64,000 bases of DNA from assembly GCA_028718865.1 (NCBI GenBank), contig JAQUKX010000003.1, positions 33,214-97,213 of the forward strand, in the 5' to 3' direction. Shown piece after piece: positions 1 through 30,609 of this stretch. Origin of the DNA: Patescibacteria group bacterium. GTDB lineage: Bacteria; Patescibacteriota; Patescibacteriia; UBA1558; GWA2-36-10. The notes under the pieces were generated by a model, which ran no database searches, was not told the DNA's origin, and worked only from the letters and a program-made list of their open reading frames with translations. The position numbers and the translations under genes are program-made. Position 1 is the first letter of the stretch. Every line of letters starts with the position of its first letter.

Positions 1-1123
1 CATAAAAATCAGCAATGGTTTGGATTATTTTTTTACCAGTTAGGCCGGCTTTTTTCGGGTTTATAGAAATGTCCCCCAAAATAGATTTAATGCTATCTAG
101 ATTGGGCTTTAAATTGTTTAATTGGTGGATGGCGATTATCCGATTTAAAGCACCTTCCAGCTCACGGATGTTTTCCTGGATATTTTCAGCCACATAATGA
201 ATTATTTCTTTGTCTAAATCGTAGTTTTTTTCTTGACACTTTAACTCTAAAATAGCCATTCTAGTTTCCAAGTCCGGTGAAGATATATCAGCAATCATCC
301 CCCATTCAAAACGGGAGATAAGACGACTTTCCACCCCTTGGATGGCTTTGGGTGGCCTATCAGATGATAAAACTATTTGTTTATTATTTTGATGCAAGGC
401 GTTGAAAGTGTGGAAAAACTCTTCTTGAGTCTGCTCTTTTCCGCTGATAAACTGGATATCATCGATTAAAAGCACGTCTACGCTACGGTATATTTCCTTA
501 AATTTTTCACTTTGTCCTGATTTTATAGCAAAAATAAAATCATTGGTGAATTTTTCACTGTTGATATAAAGTATTTTTTTATCAGGATCCTTGGATAAAA
601 TATAATTGCCTACTGCCTGGACAAGGTGGGTTTTACCCAAACCCACTCCGCCGTAAATAAATAAAGGGTTATATATTTCCCCGGGTTTTTGGGCAGCAGC
701 ATGGGCAGCAGCATGGGCCAATTCATTGCCTGGACCGACCACAAAGGACTTGAAAGTATAATTGGAATTTAGGCCAAAACGATGATTGTTTTTTGCTTGA
801 GAGTTATTAACAGCCTTGTTTTGAACAATGTTTTTTATTTGAGTATCTTCTCTAATATTAGCAGTTTTTTCCTTATCAGCCACCCTGTAGATAACCTGTA
901 GATTATTTTTTGATAGTGACTTTTCCAGAGCATTGAGGATGTTTTCATGATGCTTTTTTTCCAGCCAAGTTTTAACAAAAGAACTGGGCACCCCGATTAT
1001 TATCTGGTTGTTTTCCATTTCCAAAATAAAGGTATTTTTAAACCAAGTGGTGAAACTGGCTTTACTGATGATGATTTCCAGGTCACCAAGCACGCTTTGC
1101 CAAATTTTTTCCCTATTTTCCAT
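1..1123 (-). CDS. dnaA: Chromosomal replication initiator DnaA. The N-terminus is present (start codon at 1121-1123); the C-terminal DNA-binding domain is cut off by the window edge.
   Basis: Minus-strand translation gives MENREKIWQSVLGDLEIIISKASFTTWFKNTF...YNPLFIYGGVGLGKTHLVQAVGNY (Walker A) ...LLIDDIQF..., the classic DnaA AAA+ signature. The track ORFs at 15..197 and 947..1150 on the plus strand are antisense artefacts. Confidence 0.9.
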   Translation of the reverse strand, partial: MENREKIWQSVLGDLEIIISKASFTTWFKNTFILEMENNQIIIGVPSSFVKTWLEKKHHENILNALEKSLSKNNLQVIYRVADKEKTANIREDTQIKNIVQNKAVNNSQAKNNHRFGLNSNYTFKSFVVGPGNELAHAAAHAAAQKPGEIYNPLFIYGGVGLGKTHLVQAVGNYILSKDPDKKILYINSEKFTNDFIFAIKSGQSEKFKEIYRSVDVLLIDDIQFISGKEQTQEEFFHTFNALHQNNKQIVLSSDRPPKAIQGVESRLISRFEWGMIADISSPDLETRMAILELKCQEKNYDLDKEIIHYVAENIQENIRELEGALNRIIAIHQLNNLKPNLDSIKSILGDISINPKKAGLTGKKIIQTIADFY

Positions 1124-1129
1124 GCCAAA

Positions 1130-1283
1130 ATAATTACTATAATACTATAACACAAAAAATTTTTTCCTAAAACAAGACCTTTATTGATAAATTGTTAATA
1201 AGCTGTTAATAATTGTTGATAACTTTTATAACTTGAAAAAATATCATTAATATGGTATCTTTCCTTCGTTAAAATTAAAAAAT
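1130..1283. promoter_or_regulatory. dnaA-rpmH divergent intergenic region; candidate oriC/DnaA-box cluster.
   Basis: AT-rich sequence with repeated TGTTAATAA / TGTTGATAA 9-mers, which are the reverse complements of TTATTAACA / TTATCAACA and lie one mismatch from the TTATNCACA DnaA box. It sits between divergent dnaA and rpmH. Confidence 0.4.
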
Positions 1284-1421
1284 ATGCCAAAAAGAACATA
1301 TCAACCCAAAAAAAGAAAGAGAGCCAAGACTCATGGCTTTAGATCTCGGATGTCCAGTCCGACTGGTAAGCGAGTTTTGAAAAAGCGCCGCGCCAAAAAA
1401 AGAGCTAAGCTAGTTGTTTAA
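1284..1421 (+). CDS. rpmH: 50S ribosomal protein L34.
   Basis: [45 protein letters not shown] (46 aa, below the ORF-track cutoff). It is in the canonical position upstream of rnpA. Confidence 0.9.
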
Positions 1422-1430
1422 TCTTGGCTT

Positions 1431-1784
1431 ATGTTACCCAAAGCCAATCGTTTGACCAAAAATCAAACCATCAAAGATTTGGCTCAGAAAGGCAAAAGTT
1501 TTTTTTTACCAGAGTTTAGCATCAAATATTTAGCCAAGGACAATAAAGGAGGAGACAGTCAGTTTGCCTTTGTTGTTTCTGCCAAGGTGGATAAGCGGGC
1601 AGTAGTTAGAAATCGTCTTACCCGGCAGATGAGAGAAGTGGTTAGGAGTTTTTTACCCAATTTATCTAATGGATATTTTGTGCTAATAATAGCTAAAAAA
1701 AAGGCTTTGAATCTGGATTTTGCTAAAATTAGAGAACAGTTTAGCTTTGCTTTTAAAAAAATAAAAATCTATAATAGTCAGTAA
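1431..1784 (+). CDS. rnpA: RNase P protein component.
   Basis: 117-aa basic protein directly downstream of rpmH with the ...[19 protein letters not shown]... RnpA motif, in the conserved rpmH-rnpA-yidD-yidC order. Confidence 0.85.
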
Positions 1785-1786
1785 TA

Positions 1787-2023
1787 ATGATCGCCAAATT
1801 TTTATTATTTTTAATTAGAACTTATCAAAAGACCTTGTCTCCAGACAGTGGTTGGCTGCGTTTTTATTATCCCCATGGTTTTTGCCGCTACTGGCCGACT
1901 TGTTCGCATTATGCTTATCAAGCTATAGAAAAAAAAGGTGCTTTCAAAGGGGTTTTAAAAGCTATTTGGCGTATAATTCGTTGTCATCCCCTGTCAGCAG
2001 GCGGATATGACCCAGTAAAATAA
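1787..2023 (+). CDS. yidD: Membrane protein insertion efficiency factor YidD.
   Basis: 78-aa protein with the YQKTLSP...[15 protein letters not shown] motif typical of YidD; conserved synteny. Confidence 0.8.
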
Positions 2024-2029
2024 AAATTT

Positions 2030-2770
2030 ATGGCAATATTTTTTACCTTATTTTATCAACCGATTTTTAACTTTTTGGTTTGGCTCTATAATCATTTGCC
2101 TGGCCAGGATTTGGGTCTGGCAATTATAATCCTTACTTTGGTTATTCGTTTGATTCTTTATATTCCTTCCAAAAAAGCTATAAAAGCCCAAAAAGAATTG
2201 GCCAGCATCCAGCCGGAAATTGACAAAATCAAAGAAGAATACAAAAACGACAAAGAAAAAATGGGTCCGGCATTAATGGCTCTTTATAAAGAAAGGAAAA
2301 TCAATCCTTTTGCCTCTTGCTTGCCCATGCTTATTCAATTACCTTTTATTTTTGCTATTTTTAAGGTATTTTTTGATGGCTTGACCAAAGAAAATGCCAT
2401 GGAAGCGCTTTATCCTTTTGTAGCTAATCCCGGAGTGCTAAATCCAATGGCCTTTGGTTTTTTTGATCTATCAGAAAAAAGCATTATAGTAGCTATTTTG
2501 GCTGGTCTTGGCCAATTTTGGCAAACAAAAATGCTTAGTGCCAGCAATAAAAACGCCAAAGCTTCGCTTAGTTCGTCTTTGAACAAGCAAATGCTCTATA
2601 TTTTCCCGCTTTTCACGGTTTTTATTGGTTCCCGTTTTCCAGCTGGCGTTACTTTTTATTGGCTTTTAACTACTCTTTTTTCTATAGGTCAGCAGTATAT
2701 TGTTTTGGGACGCAAGAAAAAACAGCCGGCCGGCACAGCAGAAGTAGGTGAAGTAATAGATAAAAAATAA
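2030..2770 (+). CDS. yidC: Membrane protein insertase YidC (short form).
   Basis: 246-aa multi-TM protein with a KKQ-rich loop and C-terminal basic tail; synteny with rnpA/yidD. Confidence 0.8.
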   Translation: MAIFFTLFYQPIFNFLVWLYNHLPGQDLGLAIIILTLVIRLILYIPSKKAIKAQKELASIQPEIDKIKEEYKNDKEKMGPALMALYKERKINPFASCLPMLIQLPFIFAIFKVFFDGLTKENAMEALYPFVANPGVLNPMAFGFFDLSEKSIIVAILAGLGQFWQTKMLSASNKNAKASLSSSLNKQMLYIFPLFTVFIGSRFPAGVTFYWLLTTLFSIGQQYIVLGRKKKQPAGTAEVGEVIDKK

Positions 2771-2795
2771 TTCTCTTTTGATAAATAAACAAAAA

Positions 2796-2825
2796 ATGCC
2801 CTTTAAAAAAAGGGTTTTTTGGTGT
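2796..2825 (+). terminator. Intrinsic terminator after yidC.
   Basis: CCCTTTAAAAAAAGGG hairpin followed by a T-run. Confidence 0.5.
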
Positions 2826-2879
2826 TTATATAATTCTGGAGGGAATTAGCTATACGCCCGATGATCAATAGAATCCGCT

Positions 2880-3060
2880 TGTCATCTCACGCTTTCCCTT
2901 CTGTTATTCCCGTCCCCACCTTCGCGGGGATAAACTCCAGCGGCTTGCCTGCTGACAGGCAGGGAATCTGGTCTTTCTCTTTCGTCATTCCCTCGAAAGC
3001 GGGAATCTACTTTGAGATAAAGAAAAGCTAGATTCCGGCTCGGAGGCCGGAATGACAAAA
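2880..3060. repeat. Cluster of modular hairpin repeats (GTCATTCC-N-GGAATCTAG family).
   Basis: Concatenated ~25-30 bp palindromic modules, e.g. TCCCCACCTTCGCGGGGA, GTCATTCCCTCGAAAGCGGGAATCTA and TTCCGGCTCGGAGGCCGGAATGAC. The same modules recur at 5765-5965, 6925-7140 and 7500-7650 in shuffled order and in both orientations. Confidence 0.7.
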
Positions 3061-3065
3061 AGATA

Positions 3066-3812
3066 TTAATCAAAATTTCTCTCACTGCCAACTATGACTT
3101 TGAGTTTTTGCGGCGCTACAGTGATTTCCACCGGAGTCTTCATGATGATTTGTTGGTCAGTTAAAATAGATACTTGATCTTCCTGATTGCTGCCGATTTT
3201 AATTTTGGTAAAAGGCAAAATAGTTTCCGCTATTTTTTTTGAGCCAAAAAGCCCTGATTTTATAGGGGTAATCACTGCTTCTAGTATGCCATCAATAGGG
3301 TTGGACATGGACAGATTTTCATTGGTAGCGAAGTTGTAAAGAGTGATTTTATTTTTTTTGGTAGTGGGCTCTACTTTGAAATCATTGTATTCTATCACTA
3401 CGTCACCGTTTTCAATTTCAGCTGTGTTGATAAAATAGTGGTTGTTTATCTTGCCCAAGTCTATTTTTTTGATAATTCTAGAAGCCAGTACTTCGCAAGC
3501 AGCTTCTTTGGGCGGGATGCCCAGTATTTTGGCAATATTGTTATTGTTGTCTACTGGGATTAACCCTAGAGTCAAATCAAGATCTGCTACGATATTGATC
3601 ACCTTGGCAAAAGTCTGAGCATTGCCAATAGCCACAACCGTATGAATCCCCTCTTTGGCTGCGTCATTTATCAACTCTTTCATGTTTTTGAGTACAGACA
3701 AACGGGCGATTTTTCCTTTAATACCCAAATCAGTCAACCTTTTTTCTATTTTGATCAAAAGGTCAGTGTATTTTTTTTCATTTAAAAAAGAGTCGTAAAT
3801 GTATAAATACAT
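3066..3812 (-). CDS. Diacylglycerol/lipid kinase catalytic-domain protein (YegS/DagK-like).
   Basis: 248 aa; the N-terminal ...IHTVVAIGNAQTFAKVINIV... region matches the DAGK_cat fold arrangement. This is homology inference only. Confidence 0.5.
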   Translation of the reverse strand: MYLYIYDSFLNEKKYTDLLIKIEKRLTDLGIKGKIARLSVLKNMKELINDAAKEGIHTVVAIGNAQTFAKVINIVADLDLTLGLIPVDNNNNIAKILGIPPKEAACEVLASRIIKKIDLGKINNHYFINTAEIENGDVVIEYNDFKVEPTTKKNKITLYNFATNENLSMSNPIDGILEAVITPIKSGLFGSKKIAETILPFTKIKIGSNQEDQVSILTDQQIIMKTPVEITVAPQKLKVIVGSERNFD

Positions 3813-3826
3813 AAAAAATAAGAATT

Positions 3827-4255
3827 TTATTTTTCCTCAACTGTTTCCTTGGCTGATTTTGGCTTAGAAACCGGACTCTCGTCTTGATAGCTGATGTTGC
3901 TCACCGGCATATCAATATTGCCTTTGATTAGGGCTCCGCTTTCCATAGACAGAACTTGAGTTTTGACATCACCTAGAACAAGAGCAGTGCTGCTGAGCTC
4001 TAGCTTTCCTTTGATATGGATATTGCCCTTGACCTTTCCTGAAATAAAAGCATTATTGGCGCTAATATTAGCCTGAATTATAGCATTAGTGCCTATTTTG
4101 AGGTTGTTTTTGGTTTTGATATTGCCTATCAAAACACCTTCGATAATTAAATCTCCTTCGCCTTTGAAATCGCCTTCTACTTTGACAGATGGGCCAATGA
4201 TAGTTTCAACTCCTTTGGAGCTAGGAGCAGCACTGCTTTGCTGTTTATTAAACAT
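3827..4255 (-). CDS. Bactofilin-family cytoskeletal protein.
   Basis: 142 aa of repetitive beta-helix-like segments (GNIKTKNNLKIGTNAIIQANISANNAFISGKVKGNIHIKGKLEL) typical of the bactofilin DUF583 family. Confidence 0.65.
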   Translation of the reverse strand: MFNKQQSSAAPSSKGVETIIGPSVKVEGDFKGEGDLIIEGVLIGNIKTKNNLKIGTNAIIQANISANNAFISGKVKGNIHIKGKLELSSTALVLGDVKTQVLSMESGALIKGNIDMPVSNISYQDESPVSKPKSAKETVEEK

Positions 4256-4515
4256 ATTTTTTATATTTAGACAATTTAATTATAGAGATTTTCTGTTCCT
4301 TTATATTAGCTAAATTAGCGTTTAATGTAAAGAGCATGGACTTTTTTTGCTAGCTATATTAGAATATTTAAAGTAAAAAATGTTCTTATTTTATTTCAGG
4401 GGCATTAAAAATAGGGTAAAATTAAACAACTAAGCTATAAAATATATATTACGACACATTATTTATACTAATATAAAATAGAAAGTAAAAATTTAGTTAA
4501 AATCAAAACCCCTCT

Positions 4516-4590
4516 GACCCCATAGTTTAATGGATAAAACAAGAATCTCCTAAGTTCTGGATCCAGGTTCGATTCCTGGTGGGGTCACCA
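4516..4590 (+). tRNA. tRNA-Arg (anticodon CCT).
   Basis: Cloverleaf with acceptor GACCCCA/TGGGGTC, anticodon stem AGAAT/GTTCT, loop CTCCTAA, T-loop GGTTCGATTCC, and an encoded CCA. Confidence 0.8.
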
Positions 4591-4728
4591 CTTTTTAAAC
4601 CAAACAAAAGACAAAAAAGCACTTTCGTGCTATGATAAAAATATGAGTGCTAGCGACGAAGAAAATCAGTCTGTTTTTAATAAAAATTTAATCCTAATTT
4701 AAATAGGGCTTTTGGCCTGTTTTTTTAT

Positions 4729-5706
4729 TTGTCTATGCTTATAATCACTTTACTTATTTTGGTGTTTTTATCATCTTGGTTTTCCGGTATGGAAATCGCC
4801 ATGTTTTCGCTAACACCAGCCAAGGTAAAAGAGTTGGTTTTGGCCAAAAAGAAAAACGCCTTGCTTTTGGAGAGGCTTTTAAGCAAGAAACACCGGCTTT
4901 TGGTAGTAATTCTTTTGGGCAATAATTTGATAAATATAGTGGCAGCCAGCTTAGCAGCCGTAGCAGCAGTTGAAGCTTTTGGCTCCATTGGCGTGGGTTT
5001 GGCTACTGGCATTATGACTATTTTGATTTTGATCTTTGGTGAAATGTACCCCAAAGCCTATTATCAAATTCATGCGGCCAAAGTAGCTCTGCGCTTTAGT
5101 CCGTTGATTTATGTTTTACAAATTGTTCTTTGGCCTATAGTAGTACTTTTGGAAAAACTGCTCAATATTTTGACTGGCAATAAAAAAAGGGAAAAAGTTT
5201 CGGAAAAAGAGTTCAAAGCCTTGAGCCGTTTGGCTGTAGAAAAAGGAGTTTTGCAATTTAAAGAGCACGAGATGATTATGAATGTGTTGGAGTTCAATGA
5301 CATCAAAGTCAAGCAAATAATGGTACCAAAGTATAAAATGGAGCTTTTGCAGGCGGATGCTCATATTGATCAGGTGGCTTATTTTGTTGGCCAAACAGGC
5401 TTTTCTCGCTATCCAGTTTATCGTAATCAAAAAAACAATGTAATTGGCTATGTCCATGCCATTAGTATTTTGCAAGCCTTAAATAGCGAAAAAAGAGAAG
5501 ATCCAATTTTTGGCTTAGTTAAGCCAATTTTGAAAGTGAATGAAGAAGATAAAATCAATTTGGTGTTTAATCGCATGATCAAAACTCATACTCATATGGC
5601 TTTGGTTTTTAGAAAAAAAGAAGTGGTAGGATTGGTAACTTTAGAAGACTTATTGGAAGAAATAGTTGGAGAAATCAGAGATGAGACCGATGAACCGATT
5701 TCTTAG
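4729..5706 (+). CDS. HlyC/CorC-family (CNNM) transporter with DUF21 plus CBS domains.
   Basis: 325 aa with four N-terminal TM helices, then CBS-pair-like segments (…KVKQIMVPKYKM…VIGYVHAISIL…) and a C-terminal CorC-like region. Confidence 0.7.
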   Translation: MSMLIITLLILVFLSSWFSGMEIAMFSLTPAKVKELVLAKKKNALLLERLLSKKHRLLVVILLGNNLINIVAASLAAVAAVEAFGSIGVGLATGIMTILILIFGEMYPKAYYQIHAAKVALRFSPLIYVLQIVLWPIVVLLEKLLNILTGNKKREKVSEKEFKALSRLAVEKGVLQFKEHEMIMNVLEFNDIKVKQIMVPKYKMELLQADAHIDQVAYFVGQTGFSRYPVYRNQKNNVIGYVHAISILQALNSEKREDPIFGLVKPILKVNEEDKINLVFNRMIKTHTHMALVFRKKEVVGLVTLEDLLEEIVGEIRDETDEPIS

Positions 5707-5764
5707 GAATCAAAATTTTTTGGCTAATACTATATAAAAAACATCTTAAGAAGGTGTTTTTATG

Positions 5765-5965
5765 TTGGAAGTGATTTTCTTTGTCATTCCGATTCCGCCT
5801 GCGCCTGTGGGCTTCGGCGGACAAGCGAGACGAGTGAAACGAGGCGAGTGGAGGAATCTAGTTTTTTCTTTTCGTCATTCCGGCCCCCGAGCCGGAATCT
5901 AGTCTTTCCTTATCTCAAAGTAGATTCCCGCTTTCGCGGGAATGACGAAATAAAAATAATCGTCA
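5765..5965. repeat. Modular hairpin repeat cluster (same family as 2880-3060).
   Basis: Contains TTCGTCATTCCGGCCCCCGAGCCGGAATCTAGTCTTTCCTTATCTCAAAGTAGATTCCCGCTTTCGCGGGAATGACGAAATAAAAA. About 110 bp (5851-5960) reappears identically at 7041-7140. Confidence 0.75.
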
Positions 5966-6133
5966 TTGTAAGACTTTAGGTCTTTAATTTATAATTTTTT
6001 AGGTTTTAAGATAAGAAAAAACTCCGTCTCACTCGCCATTGTGCGAGAGTATTGAGACGGAGTGTTGAGGACTGGCTGATCTGCCAGTTGGAAGTGTTAG
6101 CCGGTCTTTGCTCCTGTGGAGCTACGACAAGAC

Positions 6134-6820
6134 TCAGGAAACTGACTGACGAGCGCGCAGAAAGCCAACGGCAAAGCCAGGAAAGAACCAGCCGACGCGG
6201 AGCCTGCCATTGCCAGCAAGCCAGAAGACGCACGGCACGCCGCCATCGCGGCCGCGCGAACCGGCGCAGAGAGTCCAGTTCTGGACATCAAGATGCTCGT
6301 TGGTCTCCGAGAAATACTTGAGCTCGTAGACCAGCCGCTCGAGCAGAGTCATGGCGTTGACGCCCTGCTGACGAAGCTTGTTGGCCGACAGATTTTTAAG
6401 TTCCTCGTCGGCCTCCACCCGCTCGCGAATCCGAATCGCGTAGTTGCAATCCGAGACACGAACGTTATCAATGACGTCCTTGTCCAGGTCGTCGATGTAG
6501 CTCGACACCGGAAAACACTTCTTCATGGCCTTGAGCACATCGTTGAGCTTCAACCCCTTGGGGATGAAGATGACGCGGTCAAAACCGCCGGCGTTGTCGG
6601 GGATCGAGGCATCGGAGAAGCTCACCGACAAGCGGAAGTACTTGCGGTAGAACTCCTGCCACTCGGACTGAATGTCGGAAATGGCGAAGGGATTCTGACG
6701 CTGGAGGAAAAGCTCCAGCTCTCGCACGGTGATCACACCGTGCTGCAGCTTGTGCATCAGGTCTGCCAGCAAGCCAAGCACTTTGCTCGGCAAGCTACCG
6801 ATCACTTGCTTCTTGCTCAT
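6134..6820 (-). CDS. DGR variable (target) protein, remote paralogue of 24717-25400. GC-rich with a C-terminal variable region.
   Basis: 228 aa and about 65% identical to the 24717-25400 product (shared NPFAISDIQSEWQEFYRKYF...GGFDRVIFIPKGLKLNDVL...RARQSVS). Its C-terminal ~35 codons align to the TR at 25687-25802, with most differences at TR adenines. It has its own TTGACA promoter and GAAAGGAA SD at 6822-6900 and an intrinsic terminator at 6010-6060. Confidence 0.75.
   Translation of the reverse strand: MSKKQVIGSLPSKVLGLLADLMHKLQHGVITVRELELFLQRQNPFAISDIQSEWQEFYRKYFRLSVSFSDASIPDNAGGFDRVIFIPKGLKLNDVLKAMKKCFPVSSYIDDLDKDVIDNVRVSDCNYAIRIRERVEADEELKNLSANKLRQQGVNAMTLLERLVYELKYFSETNEHLDVQNWTLCAGSRGRDGGVPCVFWLAGNGRLRVGWFFPGFAVGFLRARQSVS
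6146..6262 (-). other. DGR variable region VR2 at the 3' end of the remote target gene.
   Basis: Minus-strand sequence GGTTCGCGCGGCCGCGATGGCGGCGTGCCGTGCGTC...CTGCGCGCTCGTCAG aligns along its length with the TR. The 3' 15 nt (CTGCGCGCTCGTCAG, an IMH-like invariant) are identical. Substitutions are mostly at TR A positions, plus a few non-A changes. Confidence 0.7.
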
Positions 6821-6924
6821 GATCAGTTTCCTTTCATGTAAAGGTTCTAGGTATTACCTCGGCCAATTCCGAAGTAATGTATAAGCATAGCTATATTTAC
6901 TATTTTGTCAATGTTTTGGAGTTG

Positions 6925-7140
6925 TCATTCCCGCGAAGGCGGGAATCTAGCCTCTTTTTGGTTCAAAGTAGATTTCTCGACTACGCTCGAAATGACAGAA
7001 GGGAAAGGCTAGATCCCGCAATCCGCCAGCTGGCGGACGAGTGGAGGAATCTAGTTTTTTCTTTTCGTCATTCCGGCCCCCGAGCCGGAATCTAGTCTTT
7101 CCTTATCTCAAAGTAGATTCCCGCTTTCGCGGGAATGACG
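6925..7140. repeat. Modular hairpin repeat cluster.
   Basis: Modules GTCATTCCCGCGAAGGCGGGAATCTAG and others, plus the exact ~110-bp copy of 5851-5960. It flanks the remote DGR target on the opposite side to the 5765-5965 cluster. Confidence 0.75.
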
Positions 7141-7221
7141 AAATAAAAAATCATGGTTTGACATTTGACAATTAGCATGCTATGATACCCCCATAGGGTA
7201 TAATGATATTTATTTAAAACA

Positions 7222-7482
7222 ATGAAAAAAGCCTGTTGTCCAGAAAAAATAATTTCCCAGCTCCATCGTATTGAAGGGCAAGTGCGTTCGGTGGAGAAAA
7301 TGTATAATGAAAAAAGGGACATTGAAGAAATTGCCAGAGTAGTCAAGGCTGCTCGGGCTTCTATGGATTCTTTGAGCAAACTGCTTATCAATGATAAGAT
7401 AAGTGGGTGCTATGATGGCAAAAAATCAGTGGATAAAAAAGAAGTTGGTCGCTTGATAAATATTTTATTTGATATAACATAA
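7222..7482 (+). CDS. CsoR/RcnR/FrmR-family metal-sensing transcriptional repressor.
   Basis: 86 aa; KIISQLHRIEGQVRSVEKMYNEKRDIEEIARVVKAARASMDSLSKLLI matches the RcnR/CsoR helix pattern. An N-terminal CC and an internal Cys are present. Confidence 0.6.
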   Translation: MKKACCPEKIISQLHRIEGQVRSVEKMYNEKRDIEEIARVVKAARASMDSLSKLLINDKISGCYDGKKSVDKKEVGRLINILFDIT

Positions 7483-7499
7483 AAAAGTTTAGAAATTAA

Positions 7500-7650
7500 C
7501 TAGATTCCCGCTTTCGCGGGAATGACAGAAGGGAAAGGCTAGATTCCCTGCCTACCGGTCTTCGACTCCGAGGTCGCTCAGACTTGAGGAGCAGGCAGGT
7601 CGCTGGAGCTTATCCCCGCGAAGGTGGGGACGGGAATGACATAAATAACA
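7500..7650. repeat. Modular hairpin repeat cluster.
   Basis: TAGATTCCCGCTTTCGCGGGAATGAC ... CCCCGCGAAGGTGGGGACGGGAATGAC. It is an inverted arrangement of the modules seen at 2880-3060. Confidence 0.7.
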
Positions 7651-7667
7651 ATTAATTAAAAAATAAC

Positions 7668-7994
7668 ATGGCATTAGAAATTACCGATCAAAATTTTGAT
7701 CAAGAAGTAAAAAATTTTAAGGGACTAGTCTTGGTAGATTTTTGGGCTGCTTGGTGTGGACCTTGTAAAATGCAAGGACCAATAATTGATCAATTAGCCG
7801 AGGAATTAAAAGATAAAAGTGAAGTAAAAATAAGCAAGTTGAATGTGGATGAAGCTCGAGTCAAAGCTCAAGAAGAAGAGGTGATGAGCATCCCTACTTT
7901 AAAACTTTTTAAAGACGGGCAAGTAGTGGAAACTTTAGTTGGTTTACAAAGTAAGGAAAGTTTACTAGAGCTTATCAATAAACATTTAGCCTAA
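7668..7994 (+). CDS. trxA: Thioredoxin.
   Basis: 108 aa with the WAAWCGPCK active site. Confidence 0.9.
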   Translation: MALEITDQNFDQEVKNFKGLVLVDFWAAWCGPCKMQGPIIDQLAEELKDKSEVKISKLNVDEARVKAQEEEVMSIPTLKLFKDGQVVETLVGLQSKESLLELINKHLA

Positions 7995-7999
7995 AAAAT

Positions 8000-8953
8000 A
8001 TGGAAAATCAGCTTTATGATGTAGTGATAGTCGGCGGTGGACCAGCCGGACTGACATCTGCTATTTATACTTCTCGCCGAGCAATGAAAACTTTGGTAAT
8101 TTCTCGGGACATTGGTGGTCAACTTTCTTTGACCGATGATGTGGAGAATTATCCTGGTTTTGAATCTATAGGCGGACTGGAACTTTCTCAAAAATTTCAA
8201 GTTCAGGCGGCCAAAACGGGCGTAGAATTTTTGTTTGAAGGAGCGGAAAATATTATCAAAGAAGATAGTGGTTTTTTGCTAGAGACCTCATCGGGCAAAA
8301 AAATAAAAGCCCGCAGTATTATTTTGGCTTTTGGTTTGACGCCACGCTCTTTGGGCGTGCCAGGAGAAAAAGAATTAAGTGGTCGGGGTGTGACTTATTG
8401 TGCTACTTGCGATGGACCGCTTTATCGGGGCAAGGAAGTGGTGGTAGTTGGCGGTGGCAACTCAGCTCTAGATGCGGCTGAGTATATGTCTAAGATTGCC
8501 AAAAAAGTTTATATGCTAGCTCGAGGGGAACTTTTTCGAGGGGAACAGATTTTGGTAGATCAGGTAAAAACAGCTGCTAATGTGGAAATATTTTTCCGTG
8601 CCAATGTCAAAGAAATAAAAGGCAAAGACAGAGTAGAAGCGGTTGTTTTTAGCGTAGAAGGTCAGGAGGATAAAGAAATTCCAGTGGATGGTATTTTTGT
8701 AGAAATAGGTCATGTGGCCAAAAGCGATTGGCTAGCTGGTCTGGGGGTAGCTCTCAATGAACGCCGAGAAATAATCATCAACAGCGACAATGAAACCAAT
8801 GTCAAAGGAGTGTTTGCGGCTGGTGATATTACCGAAGTTAGTTATAAGCAGGCAGTTATTTCTGCTGGCGAGGGCTGTAAAGCAGCTTTGCAGGCCTATC
8901 GTTATTTACAAGGAGGCAAGCCACTTACGCCAGATTGGACGCCGAAGAAGTAG
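8000..8953 (+). CDS. trxB: Thioredoxin reductase.
   Basis: 317 aa with the VIVGGGPAG FAD motif, the CATCDG redox centre and a GGGNSA NADPH motif. Confidence 0.9.
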   Translation: MENQLYDVVIVGGGPAGLTSAIYTSRRAMKTLVISRDIGGQLSLTDDVENYPGFESIGGLELSQKFQVQAAKTGVEFLFEGAENIIKEDSGFLLETSSGKKIKARSIILAFGLTPRSLGVPGEKELSGRGVTYCATCDGPLYRGKEVVVVGGGNSALDAAEYMSKIAKKVYMLARGELFRGEQILVDQVKTAANVEIFFRANVKEIKGKDRVEAVVFSVEGQEDKEIPVDGIFVEIGHVAKSDWLAGLGVALNERREIIINSDNETNVKGVFAAGDITEVSYKQAVISAGEGCKAALQAYRYLQGGKPLTPDWTPKK

Positions 8954-22327: not shown

Positions 22328-22618
22328 GTGAAGAAAGTCGTTCTTATCATCATCGCGATCTTCGCGCTCCTGCTCGTTTCCGGTTGCGCCGGGACCAATT
22401 CGGTTCAGAACACGCCTGGTAGCAATGGCGTGGCTGGGTTCTGGTCTGGCCTCTGGCACGGCATGATCGCGCCGATCAGCTGGTTAATCTCCCTCTTCAA
22501 CTCCAACGTGAACATCTACGAGGTTCACAACAACGGTGGCTGGTACGACTTTGGTTTCGTGCTTGGCGCCGGGATTCTGGCCAGAGGGAGCCGATCCTCA
22601 CGTAGGCGCGAGCACTGA
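22328..22618 (+). CDS. Small GC-rich (~60%) lipoprotein; a self-contained expression unit inverted relative to neighbouring cassettes.
   Basis: MKKVVLIIIAIFALLLVSGCAG lipobox, GTG start with a strong SD, and a terminator hairpin ACTAGTTGTCCCTAACAACTAGTTTTCTTTT at 22630-22665. Confidence 0.6.
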   Translation: MKKVVLIIIAIFALLLVSGCAGTNSVQNTPGSNGVAGFWSGLWHGMIAPISWLISLFNSNVNIYEVHNNGGWYDFGFVLGAGILARGSRSSRRREH

Positions 22619-24716: not shown

Positions 24717-25400
24717 ATGAGCAAGACGCAAGTGGTCGGCACGATGTCCGAATGGTCGGGCATTATCCGCGACATGTTCCGTCAGTTCGACGACGGCTCG
24801 TTGACCCTGGCTCACGCCAAGGCCTTCACCGAGCATCGGAACCCTTTCGCCATTTCGGACATCCAGTCCGAGTGGCAGGAGTTCTACCGCAAGTACTTCC
24901 GCATCAGCGTGGACTTCTCGGATGTCTCGATTCCTGCCGATCCCGGTGGCTTTGACCGCGTCATCTTCATCCCCAAGGGGTTGAAGCTCAACGATGTGCT
25001 CAGGGCCATCCGCAAGCAGTTCCCGGCTTGGAGCTACGAGGAGGATCTGGACAAGGACGTCATCGAGAACATCCGCAAGTCGGATCGCAACTACGCGATT
25101 CTGATTCGCGAGCGGGTGGAGGCCGATGAAGAGCTCAAGAACATCTCGGCCAACCAGCTGAAACAGCAGGGCGTCAACGCCATCACCCTGCTGGAGCGTC
25201 TGGTACTCGAGCTGAAGTACTGGTCCGAGACCGGCCAGCATCTCGATGTCAGCAACATCACCCTGTGCGCCGGTTCGCGCAGCCGCTTTGGTAGCGTGCC
25301 GAACGTCGACTGGAGCGCTGACTGCGGCAAGCTCCACATCTACTGGTTCAGCACTGGCCGTGCCAATGGCCGTCTGCGCGCTCGTCAGTCAGTTTCCTAA
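24717..25400 (+). CDS. DGR variable (target) protein with a C-terminal variable region; GC-rich (~60%).
   Basis: 227 aa. The last ~35 codons (…GSVPNVDWSADCGKLHIYWFSTGRANGRLRARQSVS) are encoded by the VR, which matches the TR at 25687-25802 except at TR adenines. The antisense track ORFs 24648..25337, 24752..24955, 25091..25339 and 25246..25434 are artefacts. Confidence 0.85.
   Translation: MSKTQVVGTMSEWSGIIRDMFRQFDDGSLTLAHAKAFTEHRNPFAISDIQSEWQEFYRKYFRISVDFSDVSIPADPGGFDRVIFIPKGLKLNDVLRAIRKQFPAWSYEEDLDKDVIENIRKSDRNYAILIRERVEADEELKNISANQLKQQGVNAITLLERLVLELKYWSETGQHLDVSNITLCAGSRSRFGSVPNVDWSADCGKLHIYWFSTGRANGRLRARQSVS
25271..25388 (+). other. DGR variable region VR1.
   Basis: 118 nt aligned to the TR with 16 substitutions, all at TR adenine positions (A>G ×10, A>T ×5, A>C ×1). 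A GC hairpin TCACCTCTTTCCCTTGAGGTGA lies just downstream of the IMH-like 3' end CTGCGCGCTCGTCAG. Confidence 0.85.
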
Positions 25401-25686
25401 CACTTCCAACTTTCACCTCTTTCCCTTGAGGTGAGATAGGAGTGTGCAATCACGCCCCGTGTGTGTCAATTCGTTTGACGCCCGGGGCTTTCTTTTTATA
25501 TAATAATCTCGGCTAATACAATCGGTCTTGATTTTTCAGGATAGCGATTTGCCATTTCTTTGGAAACTGCTTGTTAAGTTCTGGCTGGATTAAGTCCACA
25601 CATATTACAAACTCTTTGAAGTTTGACGATTAGTAATATTTATTTAATATCACTCGTCGGCCAAGATGGAATTTAGCAAAAATTGG

Positions 25687-25802
25687 GTTCGCGCAACCGC
25701 AATGGTAACGTGCCGAACGTCAACTGGAACGCTGACAACGGCAAGCTCCACATCAACTGGTACAACACTGACAATGCCAATGACCATCTGCGCGCTCGTC
25801 AG
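25687..25802 (+). other. DGR template region (TR).
   Basis: GGTTCGCGCAACCGCAATGGTAACGTGCCGAACGTCAACTGGAACGCTGACAACGGCAAGCTCCACATCAACTGGTACAACACTGACAATGCCAATGACCATCTGCGCGCTCGTCAG. It is rich in AAC codons, non-coding in context, and located just upstream of avd/RT. The track ORF 25666..26085 over it is spurious. Confidence 0.85.
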
Positions 25803-25838: not shown

Positions 25839-26198
25839 CTATTTGTTTAAATATTTTATCCACCCGCTCGCCATTTTCGAAATTTGCATCATTTTTTCAG
25901 CTAGGAGTAGGTATTTTTTGTCAGCGATTATTTTTAATTCCCACATTAGTCTAGTCAATCTTTTTGCTACTTCAATTTGTATCTTCAGTTTGGCAACCAC
26001 CACAGATTTTTTATCTCTAGCGGTCAAAGCCGCCAGTGTTCCTAATTCCAAACAATCAATGATAATATTTTCAATTTTTTGGTAAAGCCCAAAGCGTTCC
26101 ATTTTGGCAATTTGTTTTCGTCTGGTGTATAATTCCCGATATAAAGTAGTAAGCTCATGAATTATCGGCAAGCTAACATCGTTGGGGGGGGTAAACAT
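25839..26198 (-). CDS. avd: Avd-like accessory protein (four-helix-bundle family), tentative.
   Basis: 119 aa, basic/helical (…LYRELYTRRKQIAKMERFGLYQKIENIIIDCLELG…). Size and position between the TR and RT fit Avd. It is on the opposite strand and overlaps the RT start by ~40 nt. Confidence 0.45.
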   Translation of the reverse strand: MFTPPNDVSLPIIHELTTLYRELYTRRKQIAKMERFGLYQKIENIIIDCLELGTLAALTARDKKSVVVAKLKIQIEVAKRLTRLMWELKIIADKKYLLLAEKMMQISKMASGWIKYLNK

Positions 26199-27158
26199 AG
26201 TAGTCTTTTTTTAAAAATTATTTCTTTAGATAATTTGCTTTTATCATGGCGAGAATTTAAGCGTGGTAAAGCCACAAGGCGTGATATTCAGCAGTTTGCC
26301 TTTAATTTGGAAGAAAATATTTTTTGTCTTCACAAAGAGCTTGAAAATATGACGTATTGCCACAGTCCTTATCAGTCATTTTTCATCCAAGATCCAAAAA
26401 CTAGGCATATTCATAAGGCTGGCGTCAAAGATAGAGTTGTCCACCAAGCTTTATTTAGAGTATTATATCATTATTTTGATAAGAAGTTTATTTTTGATTC
26501 ATATTCTTGCAGGCTAAAGAAAGGTAATCATAAGGCTGTCTATCGCTTGGATAAGTTGATAAGAAAGGCCAGCCTTGATTATCAAAAACCAGTTTTTGCC
26601 TTAAAGTGCGATATCAGAAAATTTTTTGCCAACGTTGACCAAAAAATATTATTGTCTTTATTACAAAAAACTATTAAAGACCAAGATACTCTTTGGCTAG
26701 TTAAAAAAATTATTGATAGTTTTACATGTAGTCAAAATAAAGGTTTGCCTCTGGGCAATGTTACTAGTCAATTATTTTCCAATATTTATCTTAATGAGCT
26801 TGATTATTTTGTAAAACATACTTTAAGGCAAAAGTTTTATATCAGATATTGCGATGATTTTATTATTTTACATCAAGACAAAAAATATTTAGAAAATTTA
26901 GTTGCCACTTTAGCTAATTTTTTGCAAGCTAGACTAAAGTTAGATTTGCACCCTAATAAAATAACAATAAGGAAAGTAAATCAAGGTGTGGACTTTTTAG
27001 GTTATGTGGCTTTGACACGCTATCGAGTGTTGAGGACAAAAACAAAGAAGAGAATTTTGCGTCTTGCCAGTAGTAAAAATTTACAGTCTTATCTAGGAGT
27101 ATTACATCATGCCAATGCTTATGAATTAAAGCAGGTATTGATAAAAAAGATTGTTTAG
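26157..27158 (+). CDS. DGR-type reverse transcriptase.
   Basis: 333 aa; RT motifs HKAGVKDRVVHQAL (motif 2), LPLGNVTSQLFSNIYLNELD (DGR-specific [I/L]GxxxSQ in motif 4), RYCDDFII (YxDD) and GVDFLGY. Confidence 0.85.
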   Translation: MNYRQANIVGGGKHSSLFLKIISLDNLLLSWREFKRGKATRRDIQQFAFNLEENIFCLHKELENMTYCHSPYQSFFIQDPKTRHIHKAGVKDRVVHQALFRVLYHYFDKKFIFDSYSCRLKKGNHKAVYRLDKLIRKASLDYQKPVFALKCDIRKFFANVDQKILLSLLQKTIKDQDTLWLVKKIIDSFTCSQNKGLPLGNVTSQLFSNIYLNELDYFVKHTLRQKFYIRYCDDFIILHQDKKYLENLVATLANFLQARLKLDLHPNKITIRKVNQGVDFLGYVALTRYRVLRTKTKKRILRLASSKNLQSYLGVLHHANAYELKQVLIKKIV

Positions 27159-30126: not shown

Positions 30127-30609
30127 TTAAAGCGCAGAAATTTTGTCTGGAAGATGGTCAATTCCGCCAAATTCTTTAATGGGAATAGATGTTATTTTTT
30201 TCTTAATCTCAGGTTTTACATGAGTGATAGTCATTTCATCTATTCCGCCGATAGATTCGCAGTCATCTTCAATTAGAACATCCGGAATAATTCTTTCTGC
30301 GACATCTTTGTATTCTTCATTTTTTTGGCGGAATAGTAATTGACCATCTGGAAACTTAAATTTCTTGAGAACATTTTGTATTTGCTGGATTTCTTCCGGT
30401 TTTCTGCGAGAAGTCAAATACAAAATTTCTGCGCCATCATTTTTCCAATTCTGCAATTTTTTAACCGCATTACCAACAGGAACATATGACTTATAATCAT
30501 GCACAGATTCTTCTTTATTTTCAACTTGTTTGACAATTTCATTGCGAGTATGACCTACTGCATTTTTGTGCATGATTATTGTTCCCTCTGTAAAGATTAG
30601 TATTCTCAT
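30127..30609 (-). CDS. Hypothetical protein (cassette ORF).
   Basis: 160 aa, no confident motif. A degenerate site remnant lies at 29940-30125. Confidence 0.45.
   Translation of the reverse strand: MRILIFTEGTIIMHKNAVGHTRNEIVKQVENKEESVHDYKSYVPVGNAVKKLQNWKNDGAEILYLTSRRKPEEIQQIQNVLKKFKFPDGQLLFRQKNEEYKDVAERIIPDVLIEDDCESIGGIDEMTITHVKPEIKKKITSIPIKEFGGIDHLPDKISAL

Follow-up and report, generated by a model that had tools for sequence, protein, structure and literature searches.

In the Bordetella phage model of diversity-generating retroelements (DGRs), the 3' elements of the variable region (VR) and of the template repeat (TR) act as the initiation of mutagenic homing element (IMH) and its counterpart IMH*, respectively. 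A target gene need not lie beside its retroelement, as 73 non-adjacent targets have been counted in 45 of 372 DGRs, and in Treponema denticola, as at the locus described here, a second target paralogue (TvpA) is found kilobases away from Avd, TR and the reverse transcriptase (RT) (Wu et al. 2018, PMC5758913). Substitutions at non-adenine positions were reported for 23% of DGRs and are frequent in DGRs of the Candidate Phyla Radiation (CPR) (PMC5758913). The DGRs of Patescibacteria are assigned to clade 2 of Roux et al. 2021, a survey whose scope left remote targets outside (PMC8144416). Our subject is a 64,000-nt stretch of the 101,175-bp contig JAQUKX010000003.1 (positions 33,214 to 97,213; GenBank assembly GCA_028718865.1), hereafter the window, which contains a 16S rRNA gene and seven tRNA genes and is chromosomal DNA of a Patescibacteria metagenome-assembled genome (MAG). 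A canonical DGR, consisting of the target gene T1, TR, Avd and RT, occupies 24.7-27.2 kb of this window, and a second target-like gene, T2, lies 18.8 kb from it. We propose with moderate confidence that T2 is an orphan target cassette that was inserted into this chromosome, and that its variable region, VR2, is a true but mosaic one rather than a plain product of the present local TR. The genes and repeats concerned are as follows.

6134 to 6820, minus strand: T2 (locus tag PHO91_01420), a stand-alone gene for a DGR-type variable protein of 228 aa with a C-type-lectin (CLec)/formylglycine-generating enzyme (FGE)-like fold
6146 to 6262, minus strand: VR2, the variable region at the 3' end of T2, 117 nt, aligned without gaps to the TR at 25686 to 25802
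6146 to 6160, minus strand: the GC-rich, IMH-like 3' element CTGCGCGCTCGTCAG, the same in VR2, VR1 and TR
24717 to 25400, plus strand: T1 (PHO91_01520), the RT-adjacent target gene, with VR1 at 25272 to 25388
25272 to 25388, plus strand: VR1, in the 3' part of T1
25686 to 25802, plus strand: TR, from repeat comparison with VR1
25839 to 26198, minus strand: Avd accessory gene (Pfam bAvd, 2e-8; NCBIfam DivGenRetAVD, 2e-10; both matches score below the curated cut-off)
26157 to 27158, plus strand: DGR reverse transcriptase (RVT_1, 6e-20; LGNVTSQ and YCDD motifs in the translation)

The genome that carries T2 therefore also encodes a DGR-type RT and an Avd and contains a TR. An initial annotation, made from the sequence alone, had described T2 as a paralogue of the local DGR target, and BLASTP agrees with this: the products of T1 (24717 to 25397) and T2 share 152 of 228 residues (67%, E value 8e-110) in an alignment that contains the motifs cited there. 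VR2 comprises the final 117 coding nucleotides ahead of the last three codons of T2 and, also as annotated, aligns with the TR and ends identically, with no gap and an identical 15-nt 3' end. The two sequences differ at 33 of 117 nt, with substitutions at 28 of the 33 TR adenines and at only 5 of the 84 non-adenines (Fisher p = 5e-17). The adenine bias was thus borne out, although the earlier count of about 24 of 28 had to be corrected to 28 of 33. Against the same TR, VR1 has 16 mismatches at adenines and none at the 84 non-adenines. CTGCGCGCTCGTCAG occurs exactly three times in the window, in VR2, VR1 and TR, and is followed by TCAGTTTCCT in VR2 and VR1 and by AAGTTTTC in the TR. The priming end of VR2 is identical to that of VR1 over the 15-nt GC-rich element and the following 10 nt, and the 5' side of VR2 is homologous as well (GGTTCGCGC). 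By analogy with the phage model, CTGCGCGCTCGTCAG would play the role of the IMH.

At non-adenine positions, VR2 diverges from the TR by 6%, compared with 25% nucleotide divergence between T1 and T2 in the 185 codons ahead of the VR (p = 2e-5); for third positions alone, the values are 10% in the VR (non-adenine) and 35% upstream (p = 0.002). Across 120 homologues, residues encoded by adenine-containing TR codons have an entropy of 2.81 bits, versus 0.95 for the other VR residues (p = 2e-6). Owing to the adenine-specific changes, the location at the C-terminus of a C-type-lectin fold and the GC-rich 3' element identical to that of the TR, VR2 is regarded as a genuine DGR-type variable region, and it almost certainly carries diversity made by a DGR.

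Scored against the local TR, foreign VRs and TRs match it at 87-90% of non-adenine positions, so the VR scaffold is too conserved to be diagnostic of a particular template. With other copies of the target family designated by L numbers, the non-adenine mismatches of VR2 number 5/84 when the local TR is the reference, 4/80 for the L001 TR and 4/82 for the L006 TR, whereas RT-linked VRs have none (VR1, L001) or one (L006, L082, L083) relative to their own TR. Four of the five differences from the local TR, with codons read by hand, are synonymous third-position transitions. VR2 positions 21 and 45 have the state of all four foreign TRs (L001, L006, L082 and L083), position 81 has that of three of those four, and the difference at position 100 would be an ordinary adenine change if derived from the foreign TRs. 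The last 16 nt of VR2 are in local-TR states, and its 3' third fits the local TR better than the other TRs examined, with non-adenine mismatches at 81 and 100.

The 5' part of VR2 has a distinct counterpart in L083, a contig from a different metagenome with a VR at 277-393 and an RT 84% identical to the local one. Within VR positions 1-79, VR2 and the L083 VR have the same non-adenine base at 12 of 14 co-mutated sites, whereas the background from 20 further VR pairs is about 38% (binomial p ~3.5e-4, hand arithmetic). At the nucleotide level, T2 and the L083 target are 64-78% identical across most of the gene; identity reaches 89-93% in a stretch that starts about 36 nt ahead of the VR and runs to VR position 79 (90% over positions 1-79), and drops to 60% in VR positions 80-117; outside the shared stretch it is only about 74%. 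Given these shared states and this identity profile, VR2 seems, over its 5' two-thirds, to share descent with a foreign VR allele and not to have been re-randomised afterwards. It is possible that the local DGR partly rewrote an immigrant target from the priming end inward; the sites that bear on this are few. Whether the local TR has ever written into VR2, at least partially, is in our view close to evenly balanced with a slight tilt towards the negative, and it is rather doubtful that VR2 is an active acceptor at present. VR2 as it stands is no simple copy of the present local TR, and the proposal of the initial annotation that one RT/TR pair diversifies both loci is not supported in that form, because VR2 departs from the TR at non-adenines where VR1 does not, foreign TRs fit at least as well, and the variable-site states in the 5' two-thirds are those of a foreign VR.

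The family of T2 is large: a profile search returned 2299 representatives of 50%-identity clusters at E <= 1e-3 and 1049 at E <= 1e-30. The best 150 matches are mostly 190-280 aa long and mostly aligned as far as the C-terminus. None of the family homologues found carries an annotation. From GTDB genomes, 83 copies with up to 6 kb of flank per side were fetched; the layout target(+)-TR-Avd(-)-RT(+) is present in 34 of these, and among the 38 copies with 4 kb or more of flank on each side, the fetched locus lacks an RT in 21. In a neighbour-joining (NJ) tree of the non-VR part, T2 groups with P0002/P0004 (86% identity over the non-VR part) and T1 with P0014/P0015 (81-82%), and the P0014 contig carries an RT 85% identical to the local RT. 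Judged from this tree, T2 has its closer kin among the targets of other genomes rather than in T1. The idea that T2 is a recent in-genome duplicate of T1 was considered and rejected on the basis of the tree and of the non-homologous flanks described below.

Two further orphans, L009 and L032, come from two contigs of MAG JANLHG01 and both have no RT within 6 kb. They are 97% identical over the 300 nt before the final 141 nt, which include the VR and are 87% identical with differences clustered at discrete positions. On this evidence, remote family members do vary chiefly within the VR.

The T2 protein is compact (228 aa), with a helical N-terminal segment, no evident signal peptide and a CLec/FGE-like fold in which the variable residues lie at the C-terminal end; sequence searches of Pfam, NCBIfam and PDB gave no match of any weight, and no family could be assigned. 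Its 90%-identity cluster has one member from one contig, and the nearest homologue is 80% identical. An exact VR2 27-mer spanning four variable codons was absent from the metagenome contigs searched, and the exact T1 and T2 proteins are not in Logan, while the RT and CNNM proteins are. Together with the unitig ends described below, this absence could reflect VR microdiversity or repeats that break assembly.

The flanks of T2 were compared with those of T1 and of related cassettes, and four features are relevant.

6884 to 6911, minus strand: promoter-like site of T2 (TTGACA, 16 nt, TATGCT), at which homology to the T1, L001 and L006 cassettes starts
6099 to 6135, minus strand: 37-nt insertion with a GCTCC-ACA-GGAGC hairpin, between the coding end and AACACTTCCAACT (from alignments and fold)
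6086 to 6098, minus strand: conserved post-stop motif AACACTTCCAACT, common to T1-type cassettes
6015 to 6066, minus strand: intrinsic terminator of T2, an inverted repeat with stem ACTCCGTCTCA/TGAGACGGAGT and then a T run, in alignments not homologous to the T1 terminator

T1, L001 and L006 have non-coding sequence in common over approximately 170 nt on the upstream side and more than 150 nt on the downstream side, whereas the likeness of T2 to these three is limited to the stretch from the -35 box to AACACTTCCAACT. T1 and T2 had been described as having the same promoter and terminator layout; the promoter and 5' untranslated region (UTR), however, are homologous only from the -35 box on, and the terminators are not homologous. 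Likewise, the conserved motif reported after the stop codon is present behind both genes (TAACACTTCCAACT), but in T2 it is set off by the 37-nt insertion. This insertion interrupts the ancestral TAA stop, exactly at the junction of ...GTTTCCT with AACACTT, and T2 ends in TGA, unlike T1. Within the T2 subfamily, a related hairpin-forming insertion of 19-37 nt is found in four of five orphans (T2, L004 at ~6680-6710, L005 at ~6665-6700 and L007 at ~1670-1690, from alignments) and in none of five RT-linked copies (T1, L001, L006, L082, L083). The linked copies have a TCACCTC-N8-GAGGTGA hairpin at +15 from the stop, which T2 lacks; instead, T2 has GCTCC-ACA-GGAGC at a similar offset, plus ACTGGC-N6-GCCAGT further on. 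The orphan insertion hairpin may enable, replace or block target recognition. Separately, a pyrimidine-rich motif with a period of about 8 nt (e.g. CCTTGTACCTTGTACCTTGTACC) was observed after the stop codon and before the terminator hairpin in most family loci (e.g. L038, L045, L008), and TAACACTTCCAACTTTCACCTCTTTCCCTT of T1 (window 25398-25430) is a version of it.

The GC content of T2 (57%) and T1 (59%) stands out from the window (39%), the flanks (~30%) and the RT (31%), and GC at third codon positions (GC3) is 0.77 in T2. The GC island of the initial annotation is therefore real, but it does not mark mobilisation, since throughout the family target open reading frames (ORFs) exceed their flanks in GC content (median +11 points), both beside an RT and away from one. 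For the same reason, the interpretation of the island as recent foreign DNA was rejected. Family target ORFs have a GC3 of ~0.8, yet their own promoters, UTRs, Avd and RT are at host-like low GC.

Evidence that T2 is an insertion comes from its surroundings, where the following repeats were identified.

5765 to 5965: left dRS3/NIME-like hairpin cluster (repeat and pattern analysis)
5845 to 5956, plus strand: left copy of an exact 112-bp direct repeat, identical to 7038 to 7149
6921 to 7149: right dRS3/NIME-like hairpin cluster (repeat and pattern analysis)
7038 to 7149, plus strand: right copy of the 112-bp repeat, directly preceding the conserved csoR promoter/operator
2860 to 3063: further dRS3/NIME-like cluster, in which part of the 112-bp repeat recurs as an inverted 84-bp copy (93% identical)
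7500 to 7645: another dRS3/NIME-like cluster, in the stretch that separates the csoR-like gene from the thioredoxin gene

The relatives compared have CNNM proteins of 66-68% identity and retain the gene order dnaN-dnaA-rpmH-rnpA-yidD-yidC-DAGK-bactofilin-CNNM-[slot]-csoR-trx-trxR. Comparison with genomes lacking T2, which had been suggested as a check, showed that in L080 the two flanking genes are the same but the slot is empty, a 150-bp spacer devoid of hairpin modules, and in two other relatives it contains a PNP_UDP_1 gene, once together with a 144-aa ORF. The conserved csoR promoter/operator (TTGACA...ATACCCCCATAGGGTAT) starts right behind the right 112-bp repeat. The empty site, the other cargo and the position of this promoter lead to the conclusion that the segment from ~5765 to 7149 (cluster, T2 cassette, cluster) is an insertion relative to the compared genomes. 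The copy of ~110 bp that had been noticed on both sides of T2 is 112 bp long, exact and inside the hairpin clusters. A Logan unitig obtained independently (L205, run SRR22315506) is an exact match to the window and breaks off at 5874, after 30 nt of the repeat; this is the expected end point for a true repeat at k=31 and so supports the reality of the repeat. A second case of a cassette insertion with a long direct duplication is the orphan L022, without RT within 6 kb, whose target gene is flanked by a direct duplication of 188 bp (99.5% identical) at 5706-5893 and 6780-6967; it consists of the 3' end of the upstream gene, read as L20 (rplT), and its terminator.

Several side observations concern this region. 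The palindrome ATACCCCCATAGGGTAT (7185-7201; ~8090-8106 in L080) overlaps the -10 region of the csoR-like gene and is probably the operator of the csoR-like repressor. The unitigs L204, L205 and L206 (SRR22315506) are identical to the window and end at 2842, 5874 and 25446, at edges of the repeat arrays or of the conserved cassette region. By synteny, the window starts just downstream of the dnaA/origin region (1-8953).

The hairpin modules follow the definition of dRS3 and the neisserial intergenic mosaic elements (NIME) in Bentley et al. 2007 (PMC1797815). The consensus ATTCCC-N8-GGGAAT of neisserial dRS3 has five exact copies in the window, and the dRS3-type pattern, ATTCCGG...CCGGAAT variants included, has 9 matches versus 1.4 expected by chance. 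The 20-bp inverted repeat ATTCCCNNNNNNNNGGGAAT is exact at 2987-3006, 5924-5943, 6927-6946, 7117-7136 and 7504-7523. Modules in both orientations and shuffled order form four intergenic clusters, all between 2860 and 7645 (4.8 kb) and adjoining the replication-origin gene block, and the other 56 kb contain a single loose pattern match at 30161. A 28-nt string, CGTCATTCCCGCGAAAGCGGGAATCTAG, is identical to a Neisseria gonorrhoeae sequence printed in PMC7593972, and the core 22-mer occurs in more than 120 unrelated viral contigs of IMG/VR with a GC content of 43-72%. The modules are thus widespread generic palindromes of the dRS3 or repetitive extragenic palindromic (REP)-like kind rather than DGR-specific ones. 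A role for the clusters as a mobilisation signal specific to DGRs or their targets was rejected, because T1 has none and neighbouring intergenic regions do; among the other family loci, only L017 and L058 have hairpin modules, at one site each. The initial annotation was therefore right that clusters bracket T2 on both sides, but they also occur at the two further sites listed above and so do not belong to T2 alone. NIME-type arrays have been proposed to promote recombination and the insertion or exchange of genes that they flank (Bentley et al., PMC1797815), and by analogy array-promoted insertion would be a reasonable mechanism for T2. No gene for a dRS3-targeting recombinase or a filamentous phage was found in its neighbourhood. 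The earlier suggestion that the target gene was mobilised as a module accordingly survives in the insertion, the exact flanking repeat and the foreign phylogenetic affinity, but not in the hairpins, which are generic, or in the GC content.

Drawing these observations together, we propose that T2 is an orphan copy of a Patescibacteria-specific gene for a DGR variable protein with a C-type-lectin fold, and that it probably entered the chromosome as a small promoter-gene-terminator cassette, from a horizontal source. The cassette would have landed in a variable slot that has the CNNM/CBS transporter gene on one side and the csoR-like gene on the other, within a dRS3/NIME-like palindrome array, where insertion, perhaps by recombination within the array, would have left the exact 112-bp direct repeat on either side. 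VR2 would have arisen through adenine-mutagenic reverse transcription, with a TR belonging to the same family as template. Its 5' two-thirds appear to descend from a VR allele that is also found beside a related DGR in another metagenome, and at most the 3' third would have been rewritten by the local TR. As VR2 retains the priming-end match of VR1, it could in principle accept cDNA from the local Avd/RT/TR 18.8 kb off.

Some points weigh against this proposal. VR2 retains A at only 5 of the 33 TR-adenine positions, whereas six other VRs on the same TR (VR1, L001, L004, L005, L006, L007) retain 12-17, and the favoured account leaves this low count unexplained. The mosaic structure of VR2 rests on few informative sites, and could be a product of convergence under selection. 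The polarity of insertion versus loss depends on three relatives, their CNNM proteins being only 66-68% identical, and no donor of the T2 cassette was found. Finally, for non-adjacent and CPR targets a total of five non-adenine mismatches still falls inside the accepted range (PMC5758913), so that a simpler account, an active trans target served by a sloppy RT, could also apply.

Among the alternatives, we consider it possible, but on balance unlikely, that T2 is a frozen relic, with a VR that owes its diversity to another or an ancestral DGR acting before or during acquisition, and that it is no longer an acceptor and now subject to ordinary mutation only. The dispersal of the five non-adenine mismatches along the VR, mostly as synonymous C-to-T changes in an AT-rich genome, would fit this, and the equally good fit of foreign TRs, the apparent identity by descent with the L083 VR, the 37-nt insertion at the cis-hairpin position of linked copies and the lack of a nearby RT in more than half of the family members with enough flank (21 of 38) are all in keeping with it. 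A relic is harder to reconcile with an intact ORF, promoter and exact IMH-like element, with a non-adenine divergence from the local TR far below that between the paralogues (6% against 25%), and with the local-TR-specific states that VR2 carries in its last 16 nt and over most of its 3' third.

That T2 is at present an active trans target, with the local Avd/RT/TR rewriting both VR1 and VR2 and the five non-adenine changes being errors of RT or integration, strikes us as unlikely. The adenine bias (p = 5e-17), the 3' GC-rich element and next 10 nt shared with VR1, the 5' homology, the intact ORF, promoter and terminator, and the preference of the 3' third for the local TR among the TRs examined would all be expected of such a target. 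The orphan pair L009/L032 differs chiefly in the VR, and non-adjacent targets and multiple non-adenine substitutions have been reported, especially for CPR DGRs (PMC5758913). However, VR1 (0/84) and the linked copies L001, L006, L082 and L083 (0-1) have next to no non-adenine mismatches, which indicates that this RT clade is not sloppy. Four of the five differences are synonymous third-position transitions, as from drift or another template; positions 21, 45 and 81 are in foreign-TR states and position 100 is an adenine change allowed from foreign TRs; the variable-site states over positions 1-79 are held in common with a foreign VR; and the conserved downstream element is displaced by the 37-nt insertion.

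An improbable alternative assigns T2 to a second DGR outside the window, whose TR would have C21, T45, T54, T81 and A/T100 and the same 3' end. If a hypothetical TR had AAT for AAC at three codons, all VR2 differences would become adenine changes, the L083 TR shows that the version 'AAT CTG CGC GCT' exists in nature, and approximately 10% of DGR-bearing genomes have more than one DGR (PMC5758913). No second RT on this contig was seen among the 120 best RT homologues listed, most of which are without locus tags, the 64-kb window holds no third target or VR-like sequence and no second TR, and the locus-tag prefix of this MAG is on only two family proteins among the top matches listed. Ordinary paralogue conservation, in which scaffold codons conserved strongly across genomes (hence the 87-90% match of foreign sequences at non-adenines) would account for the likeness of VR2 to the TR with no retroelement involved, is highly improbable and was ruled out by the adenine bias, as differences fall 28:5 on adenines that make up 33 of 117 positions (p = 5e-17) and family-wide hypervariability falls exactly on the adenine-containing TR codons.

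A broader and more speculative reading, which we hold to be doubtful, is that orphans are mobile cassettes of promoter, VR gene and terminator that move between Patescibacteria independently of the RT, that a resident DGR with a matching TR 3' end adopts them and rewrites them inward, and that the stop-codon insertion is a cis element. If so, orphans would land in repeat arrays or make direct duplications of 112-188 bp, adoption from the 3' end inward would yield mosaic VRs such as VR2, and the hairpin insertion (4/5 orphans, 0/5 linked copies) would mark, enable or block trans-homing.

Other features of the window touch less closely on T2. A small ORF of 96 aa at 22328-22618 has a lipoprotein-like signal sequence and coincides with a local GC peak of 54-58% in AT-rich DNA. 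An Rfam search of the T2 region gave no match. Beyond the window, the ORF at the right end had no record and the left end was extended only by a 1.8-kb unitig.

A remote DGR target as such is already known; the points that T2 contributes are its separate arrival, its mosaic VR and its unspecific match to the local TR. The last of these is a cautionary control, as in a family with a conserved scaffold an adenine-biased match to the local TR is no proof of authorship. T2 is also a well-defined target that appears to have arrived apart from its retroelement, and offers a case for studying target gain and loss and the cis elements of remote VRs. More generally, it belongs to a large unannotated Patescibacteria family of small variable proteins with a C-type-lectin fold, about half of which are away from an RT, and surveys demanding RT-adjacent VRs would have overlooked the RT-distant members.

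With the TvpA-type remote targets of T. denticola, T2 shares a C-terminal VR varied mainly at adenines, a CLec fold and a GC-rich VR 3' end like that of the TR. It differs from them in that VR2 has five non-adenine mismatches versus none in the adjacent VR, that foreign TRs fit it equally, that it is in another target clade than T1, and that it is an inserted cassette with 112-bp direct repeats. The Neisseria NIME arrays resemble those seen here in their 20-bp inverted repeat and in forming short-spacer intergenic arrays around a variable gene, but here the host is a member of the Patescibacteria, the arrays are only 100-230 bp long and the palindrome core is not lineage-specific. The C-type-lectin DGR proteins Mtd (1YU0), TvpA (2Y3C) and TaqVP (5VF4) and FGE-sulfatase-like domains are alike in fold without a sequence-level match to T2, and by Pfam, NCBIfam and PDB searches the T2 family is separate from the annotated CLec families (FGE-sulfatase, DUF1566 etc.). 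The DGRs described from Patescibacteria and CPR bacteria (Roux clade 2, PMC8144416; the 'CPR set' of Wu et al.) share with this locus the host lineage, the target(+)-TR-Avd(-)-RT(+) layout and small unannotated targets; unlike in those, 21 of the 38 family copies with enough flank have no RT nearby.

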